Source of the DNA: Escherichia phage WPEC6
Direction: 5' to 3' (one strand)
Length of the DNA: 64,000 nt
Sequence record: PV763039.1
This document shows positions 62,940 through 63,746 of this stretch, one piece after another. How positions within the stretch are numbered: position 1 is the stretch's first letter; each line of letters begins with the position of its first letter. A program made the translations under genes and the position numbers. The notes beneath the pieces are model-generated. The model saw nothing but the letters and a program-made list of their open reading frames with translations, did not search any database and was not told where the DNA came from.

Positions 62940-63330
62940 AACCATTATCATCTACCCTTGCGTATCTATTCAATATAAGTGCATAACTATAATGTTGATA
63001 ATAGTTCGCAACAACAAACTAACCAACAACCTAAAACAATAAGCAAACTAATCATAATCAAAGAAATAATAGCAAGATGATTGATAACGACAAACAATCT
63101 AACCATGATAAATAGTAAGCAAGATAACGATAACACTACAAAACAACCAACTAACGAACAATAACAAACGAAATGATTAAAATAATAACTATTGCCATAA
63201 TAGTGACTGAATGAAATCATTACAAAACGAATCATTCCCAGGATCATCATTAGCACGCTATGCCGGACACATAGCGAGCTAATAATAAGCCAACTACACC
63301 CCAACAATCATAACCATCGGTGATGGTTAT
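62940..63330. repeat. Strand-skewed A/C-rich low-complexity tract with short reiterated motifs
   Basis: + strand dominated by A and C (aacaacaa, gataac, aataat reiterations); no credible ORF; followed at 63330-63700 by palindromes (ttgcaataattgcaa) and repeats (gatcattagca, atgttgagcac x2, gggggc(g)aa x3). Confidence 0.6.
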
Positions 63331-63746
63331 TTCTTGTTATTGCGTAGCTTGCAATAATTGCAAGCGTAATGACGCTTACACTTATTGCGCTGGCTTATTA
63401 TTAGCATTATATGTAATTACCAAGATCATAACATTAGCGCAATAACAATAATCATTGTAATAATTACAGTATGAGATCATTAGCATGGCAATAATTATTG
63501 GGGGCAATGGGAGGATGATTATCATCATTCCGATACATTGCACACTATGCACATAATAGAATAAAAGTCAATAATTTTGGGGGCGAAATGTTACCGCCAC
63601 AGGCGGGAATGTTGAGCACTAAGAGAAGAGCAAATATCACGGGGGCGAATACTATCGCGTAGCGATATGTTGAGCACCTTCTCTTAAACGTAAATAAAAT
63701 CAGAATAATCTTGATTTATTTTAGTTTTTATGTTAATAAACGTTTA

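Follow-up and report, generated by a model that had tools for sequence, protein, structure and literature searches.

What is the role of the skewed, repeat-rich DNA near the right end of this Escherichia phage genome? The window analysed here, a stretch of 64,000 nucleotides, matches the final 64 kb of the record of WPEC4 (PV682947.1), a Phapecoctavirus, both ending at window base 64000. An earlier note, made from the letters alone, had singled out positions 62940-63700 as an A/C-rich tract followed by palindromes and short direct repeats, and had offered replication origins, packaging sites and terminal-repeat boundaries as the settings in which DNA of this type is usually found. We found that this interval lies inside a gap of ~1.5 kb without genes at the right genome end, after the last right-end gene. 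In our judgement the chances are somewhat better than even that the whole gap is a cis-acting concatemer junction, used for cutting unit genomes from replicated concatemers and for packaging.

A conserved gap without genes at the right genome end

Over positions 62700-64000 the window matches the genome ends of WPEC1, WPEC2 and WPEC4, all Escherichia phages, at 100% identity, and ~60 Phapecoctavirus genomes (phAPEC8-like, Stephanstirmvirinae) show 91-96% identity to the same segment. The ~1.5-kb gap is conserved across Stephanstirmvirinae and is left empty in most related annotations, including those of phAPEC8 (5512-7022), tuntematon, phiWec179 and ECGD1. A homologous unannotated gap of ~2 kb is present in Klebsiella phage phi1_175008, and an IMG/VR pattern scan for further homologues yielded four additional loci only. 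The intrinsic terminator that forms the left edge of the gap (Table 1) recurs at the corresponding position in tuntematon, arall and Klebsiella phi1_175008. Chi sites and DnaA boxes were absent from the gap, and no tRNAs or known RNA families were found in the region.

With respect to coding capacity, the earlier note had recognized only one open reading frame in the tract (62987-63307, minus strand) and had dismissed it as a low-complexity artefact, which our comparison bears out. Specifically, the frame has a TTG start and a low-complexity product of G/T codons; two in-frame stops interrupt it in tuntematon and phAPEC8 (95% identical), a frameshift disrupts it in phiWec179, and its substitutions are distributed 6/4/4 by codon position, without a third-position excess. 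It is annotated as WPEC4_CDS340, and its disruption in relatives rules it out as a gene. The WPEC4 record places six short 'hypothetical protein' genes (WPEC4_CDS338-343) in 62700-63930; on comparison of the sequences these are probably spurious calls, as the largest is disrupted in relatives and no genes are annotated in the gap in most related records.

Tightly packed, very small plus-strand open reading frames fill 58000-62700. A scan of 61000-62700 gave several terminators and one or more good promoters of the sigma-70 type (TTGACA-17-TATTAT at 62223), a pattern typical of an early host-takeover gene block.

Table 1. Features of the gap and of the terminal repeat, in window coordinates. 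A vertical bar within a motif marks the repeat boundary or its counterpart.
Feature	Position	Strand	Remarks
Intrinsic terminator	62701..62728	+	GGGCGC…GCGCCC stem, then T-run; ends the last right-end gene (62302-62685); left edge of the gap
Conserved leader segment without open reading frame	62729..62930		For example GAATARATCGCGGTATCGAGCTAATCAA; partly kept between Phapecoctavirus and Justusliebigvirus (alignment)
Fur-box-like box 1	62931-62955		Core TGATAACCATTATCA; 15/19 and 14/19 against GATAATGATAATCATTATC
Fur-box-like box 2, weaker	~62989-63007		With box 1, flanks an ATGCA…TGCAT inverted repeat (62931..63007)
A-rich, G-poor, unstructured tract	63005..63235	+	A 53%, G 9.6%; the A/C-rich tract of the earlier note
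Five-helix folded element, 177 nt	63236..63412		Conserved; contains both palindromes
H1	63256-62/63270-76		Helix of the folded element
P2, 15-bp closing stem	63278-92/63391-405		Helix of the folded element
Stem 3	63294-98/63343-47		Helix of the folded element
H3	63311-18/63322-29		Helix of the folded element
H5	63351-67/63372-88		Helix of the folded element
Variable region, ATTAGC and ATAAT-type short repeats	63413..63578		TATTATTAGC-type copies recur in Klebsiella and Citrobacter phages
Terminus unit U0	63579..63619	+	GGGGGCGAA, hairpin CCGCC/GGCGG, ATGTTGAGCAC; extra copy 58 bp before U1
Terminus unit U1	63641..63677	+	GGGGGCGAA, hairpin TATCGC/GCGATA, ATGTTG|AGCAC; holds the left repeat boundary
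Start of terminus unit U2 (GGCCCGAAAATTCGCGTT|A AGCAC)	end of repeat 63673..64000		Continues beyond the window
Right copy of the 328-bp direct terminal repeat	63673..64000		Identical to WPEC4 record bases 1-328
Fur-box-like sites in the terminal repeat	63744-63762, 63923-63947		14-16/19; 17/19 in phi92, arall and phiWec179

The terminal repeat

The WPEC4 record carries the same sequence at both of its ends, bases 1-328 being equal to 155467-155794 (the last 328 positions of the window). The left boundary of this repeat falls between 63672 and 63673, inside the second of two copies of atgttg|agcac. Although a 328-bp overlap in a single record could in principle be a product of assembly, it matches the ends of independent phages. 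Specifically, the Schickermooser record begins at the same AGCA… and ends …CGCGTTA, and a terminal repeat of 328 bp has been reported for this phage (Korf 2019, PMC6563267). A 342-bp repeat was determined for BME3 by PhageTerm (PMC12210895) and starts directly after GTTG. In the phi92 record a 343-bp 'right end direct terminal repeat' is annotated, beginning with the A that corresponds to the one after the bar in GTTG|AGC. Further records stop at window position 63672 (3A1_SA_NWU) or 64000 (BI-EHEC, KKP 3954 and Mt1B1_P17).

Phapecoctavirus, Justusliebigvirus and the Klebsiella and Citrobacter phages have their repeat boundaries at homologous bases, the left one at GTTG|AGC and the right one at CGCGTT(A)|. 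The repeat described here agrees with those of phi92, Schickermooser and BME3 in homologous sequence, in boundaries and in position, and we saw no difference in the repeat. Direct terminal repeats have been described as the general genome ends of Stephanstirmvirinae (2025 paper), and the terminal repeat itself is an already known feature. Headful (pac) packaging with permuted ends was rejected on the grounds that independent records share two end bases and a repeat of fixed length.

These data locate the terminal-repeat boundary that the earlier note had envisaged at the right-hand end of the flagged interval. The A/C-rich tract, which sits 440-670 bp upstream, is not itself that boundary. The note had also held that its reading would fail if this position showed neither a coverage or terminus signal nor a skew inflection; terminus evidence does exist, and comes from close relatives.

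Terminus units at the repeat boundaries

Both repeat boundaries are contained in one unit of ~40 nt, GGGGCGAA…(small hairpin)…GTTR|AGCAC, in direct orientation. In 8/8 junction-spanning sequences the boundary motif reads GTTG|AGC(A/C) on the left and GTTA|AGCAC on the right; a GGGG(C/G)…GAA(A) block precedes both boundaries, and a small GC hairpin precedes the left one. The repeat is thus bracketed by direct copies of a ~40-nt terminus unit. The motif is rare, with four occurrences of GTTRAGCAC on both strands of the window (128 kb), two of them at this locus. The hairpin of the U1 type covaries, TATCGC/GCGATA being replaced by TACCGC/GCGGTA in Tr1, by AGCGC/GCGCT in Klebsiella and by GCCCAC/GTGGGC in KP2025.

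The number of units varies among relatives. An extra upstream unit (U0) is found in WPEC4 and tuntematon and has counterparts in Tr1 and KP2025; phAPEC8, phiWec179, Klebsiella phi1_175008 and Schickermooser are single-unit phages. At the equivalent place in Justusliebigvirus (ECGD1, BME3), four to five TATTTGTTG repeats lead to the putative cut site. As an observation in its own right, the nine bases that follow GTTG|AGCAC read TAAGAGAAG in U0 (63620-63628) and its exact reverse complement, CTTCTCTTA, in U1 (63678-63686), the two making up a 9-bp inverted repeat that spans the putative cut site.

The direct repeats quoted in the earlier note were confirmed in large part. There are two copies each of atgttgagcac (63609, 63667) and gggggcgaa (63579, 63641) and one of gggggcaa (63500), whereas gatcattagca, also given as repeated, is present in exact form only once (63475). 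The ATTAGC core has six copies in 1.3 kb, on the plus strand at 63249, 63400, 63433 and 63479 and on the minus strand at 62801 and 63278, compared with ~0.75 expected from its window-wide density.

A covarying folded element

The palindromes of the earlier note are likewise present, ttgcaataattgcaa at 63349-63363 and gcgtaatgacgc at 63364-63375, and form part of a five-helix element. The predicted folding energy of this element as single-strand DNA is -40.7 kcal/mol (z -9.0). In an alignment of 14 sequences representing ~six lineages, pairing is kept in 95-99% of cells, with changes on both sides of 13-14 pairs. This covariation was reached by 0/500 shuffles, and slid registers pair in at most 47% of cells. 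Because the central dinucleotide of the 'palindrome' TTGCAAnnATTGCAA covaries with a distal segment, it is best regarded as part of a longer hairpin; around TTGCAAnnATTGCAA there is a covarying pair both in the palindrome hairpin with P6 and in the long hairpin H5.

The changes are nearly all Watson-Crick double substitutions. Among 644 cells, only 2 are G·U and 6 are A·C, and as the A·C and G·U cells stem from perhaps three and one independent events, respectively, these counts do not separate one folding strand from the other or RNA from DNA. The only hit in Rfam 15 was sR11 (E = 0.92; 20 bits, with the gathering score at 39), located elsewhere in the repeat, and nothing in 44-64 kb reached the gathering score.

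The A-rich, G-poor tract

The tract had been described as almost devoid of G on the plus strand. It is G-poor, at roughly half the average, but the wording was too strong, as G makes up 9.6-11.5% over 230-440 nt. Specifically, 62940-63340 consists of 44% A, 21% C, 11.5% G and 23% T, and its core (62995-63240) of 52% A, 19% C and 9.8% G, with a mean G content of 18.7% for the window. Among 250-400-nt segments the tract ranks near the lowest 0.1-1% in G content, and a coding region near 9250 is just as G-poor. Adenine, at 45-53%, is the clearest outlier: the eight 250-nt segments richest in A anywhere in the window are all found at 62941-63021, with A fractions of 0.50-0.52 compared with a 99.9th percentile of 0.496.

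This composition is maintained in relatives. G amounts to 4-11% of the tract in 11/11 aligned sequences, the primary sequence diverging between genera, and the C/G ratio is 1.6-4.2 over 205-352 nt in all lineages, with C at 15-22%. As RNA the tract is nearly unfolded (-13.3 kcal/mol over 231 nt, z -1.5). Intrinsic DNA curvature was considered and rejected, the A-tracts being without 10-11-bp phasing in five lineages.

The gap as a candidate concatemer junction

In the concatemer junction that we favor, the position of the terminus units suggests that terminase would recognize them and cut at GTTR|AGC at both boundaries. The terminal repeat would then be the DNA between two tandem cutting sites, and the ATTAGC repeats, the five-helix element and the G-poor tract would be accessory signals for cutting and packaging. 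Such signals may be binding sites of the small terminase subunit or, by analogy with T7, single-strand DNA structures used in duplication of the repeat by strand-displacement synthesis. Cutting sites in the same orientation do not by themselves account for duplication of the repeat.

The closest parallel is the concatemer junction of T7, elements of which are the short-repeat arrays SRL and SRR, the phiOR promoter/origin and a hairpin intermediate, the last reportedly proposed by Chung, Nardone and Hinkle in 1990. Both systems have a short exact terminal repeat (160 bp in T7), several hundred bp of repeat-bearing cis DNA before the right repeat and hairpin-forming sequence near the right end. 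The 700 bp that precede the right repeat in the T7 record hold phiOR, short repeats and a stretch rich in AT; here, the arrays of short repeats that flank the terminal repeat are composed of two to three terminus units, of TATTTGTTG in ECGD1 and BME3 (four to five copies) and of the six ATTAGC cores. The two junctions nonetheless share no sequence similarity. No counterpart of the T7 promoter for the phage RNA polymerase was recognized here, gene 19.5 lies in the T7 stretch, and the T7 SRR region is only mildly G-poor (skew -0.22).

A second comparison is offered by the rV5-like phage LL12 (Vequintavirinae, MH491969), whose 459-bp repeat lies in a gene-free gap of >2.4 kb (600-3001). As in the present phages, a strongly G-poor tract (GC skew -0.55) stands just upstream of the repeat, short direct repeats are present (ACCTGAAGAG occurs four times), and Fur-like boxes lie in the repeat. 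In contrast, the LL12 gap is located between convergent transcripts, its reported boundaries have no GTTRAGC, and motif searches of the repeat region found no motifs of the folded element. That a repeat sits in a similar gap with neither GTTRAGC at its reported boundaries nor the folded element counts against the model.

Alternative explanations

The tract and the folded element may instead belong to a replication origin, provide a loading zone for Rho or form a structured RNA. In the first of these cases, an origin would lie beside the right end, as phiOR does in T7, with the tract unwinding and the ATTAGC repeats and the folded element binding an initiator or serving in priming. The tract is indeed 72% A+T and the most A-rich spot of the window, the ATTAGC repeats resemble iterons, and rV5-type phages encode a T7-like polymerase and a primase-helicase. 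Moreover, the T7 record has the phiOR promoter ~550 bp before the right repeat, followed by a stretch of 30-35% GC that reportedly acts as an origin (Chung & Hinkle 1990). We nonetheless consider an origin here unlikely, and the suggestion of one in the earlier note was not substantiated; 62700-64000 contains no DnaA boxes (TTATCCACA or TTWTNCACA). In the scan for sigma-70-type promoters, counts in the gap were at chance level with no conserved positions in three lineages, leaving no conserved promoter of this type for T7-style priming. Moreover, the direct repeats of 72 and 29 nt in the other region without genes, at 50.6-51.5 kb, make that region a candidate no weaker than this one. The skew analysis that the note had proposed gave inflections at ~7 and 44 kb of the window and none at this site, which lies at the end of both window and genome, where skew is uninformative and the absence of an inflection is not a basis for judgement; the two inflections coincide with local changes of skew sign and may reflect gene strand switches. 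The same lack of a conserved sigma-70-type promoter argues against a host-transcribed RNA gene and bears on a further reading, in which the gap is a transcriptional insulator: read-through from the right-end early genes would load Rho in the tract and stop at the folded element, keeping RNA polymerase away from the packaging signals, or the element would itself be a functional RNA. Taken jointly, these possibilities also appear improbable to us, if only fractionally more so. In every lineage C exceeds G for 200-350 nt on the strand corresponding to transcripts that would enter the gap, and essentially unfolded RNA would be followed by a very stable fold, of which H3 resembles a weak terminator; in LL12, transcripts converge on the repeat and both flanks have C>G in the incoming direction. 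Similar properties characterize rut regions, which have C>G, are unstructured over >80 nt, and lie downstream of a gene and ahead of a structured region. The tract here differs in being dominated by A rather than C, and its rut-like character is read from sequence. In addition, a strong intrinsic terminator already stands upstream of the tract, no sigma-70-type promoter above chance was found inside the gap and no match in Rfam, and the two G·U cells are unusually few for an RNA, DNA pairing fitting the element equally well.

The Fur-box-like palindromes raise the possibility of an iron-responsive control region, in which host Fur or a similar phage protein would bind them and regulate promoters or be titrated. 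Such a role could be combined with any of the other explanations, and from the motif matches we hold it to be quite doubtful, the least probable of the readings considered here. Sites of at least 13/19 number 12 in 62700-64000, far above the 0.8±1.4 of composition-matched shuffles; against this reading, matches to the Fur box are inflated in AT-rich repeat DNA. Like the E. coli Fur box (GATAATGATAATCATTATC), the phage sites are palindromic, clustered and conserved in position, matching it at 14-17 of 19 bases. Specifically, four positions are kept in most lineages and across genera, with matches of up to 17/19; one pair precedes the tract and the other lies within the repeat. Boxes 1 and 2 hold their position in most lineages (14-16/19), but neither reaches the threshold in Citrobacter Tr1, nor does box 2 in Phapecoctavirus, and certain boxes are missing in Klebsiella and Citrobacter phages. 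Four further units, clustered 29 nt apart at 51040-51129, and the similar boxes inside the LL12 repeat point in the same direction as the conserved positions. The E. coli Fur box, however, sits at iron-uptake promoters, whereas these putative sites lie at the genome end of a lytic phage and have GAGAAT half-sites; in each half-site, one base of the phage consensus AAATGAGAATnATTCTCATTT is not that of the Fur box. The promoter-like sites that overlap the boxes are all weak (for example 62973-62944 on the minus strand, 9/12), and our literature search found no paper that ties a Fur box to a lytic phage genome. A broader proposal would unite the folded element, the G-depleted tract and the Fur-like palindromes in an undescribed cis-acting module of phi92/phAPEC8-like phages. 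The module could act, as a new structured RNA or as single-strand DNA, in duplication or maturation of the repeat, and might link the processing of genome ends or the start of replication to host iron through Fur; we regard this as improbable, though a little less so than iron control by itself.

Relation to earlier work

The papers on Schickermooser, BME3 and Stephanstirmvirinae (PMC6563267, PMC12210895 and the 2025 paper) report only the existence or length of the repeat. Neither the boundary unit nor the covarying element, the conserved G depletion or the Fur-like boxes were found in the literature searched. The locus is a known kind of feature with a repeat that is already described, and the boundary unit, folded element, G depletion and Fur-like boxes are apparently undescribed.

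According to a review, the cutting and regeneration of short exact terminal repeats are poorly understood, even for T7. With one putative cutting-site unit at both boundaries, in a copy number that varies among close relatives, this subfamily is an unusually legible case. A strongly covarying folded element lies nearby, and together the units and the element provide concrete experimental handles on the formation of genome ends. Knowledge of the true ends would also improve the orientation and annotation of the genomes of therapy-candidate phages and allow spurious genes to be removed from the gap.

Further observations on the window and related records

A second gene-free region of the window, 50570-51500, contains a 72-nt direct repeat in two copies (50786-50857 and 50924-50995, 82%) and a 29-nt repeat in three to four copies. 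Four Fur-box-like units with a spacing of ~29 nt occupy 51040-51129, the best 19-mer matching at 16/19 (51092), and no stretch of the window without G is longer than the one found here (61 nt at 50746). The region may be an origin or a regulatory hub.

Several related records deserve comment. Records named as Campylobacter, Acinetobacter and Pseudomonas phages show 80-99% identity to these coliphages across the gap, and their host labels look doubtful. The genomes of WPEC1 (161,280 bp) and WPEC2 (159,418 bp) are 4-11 kb longer than that of WPEC4 and those of typical 150-kb relatives, and both records begin with the reverse complement of the window end.
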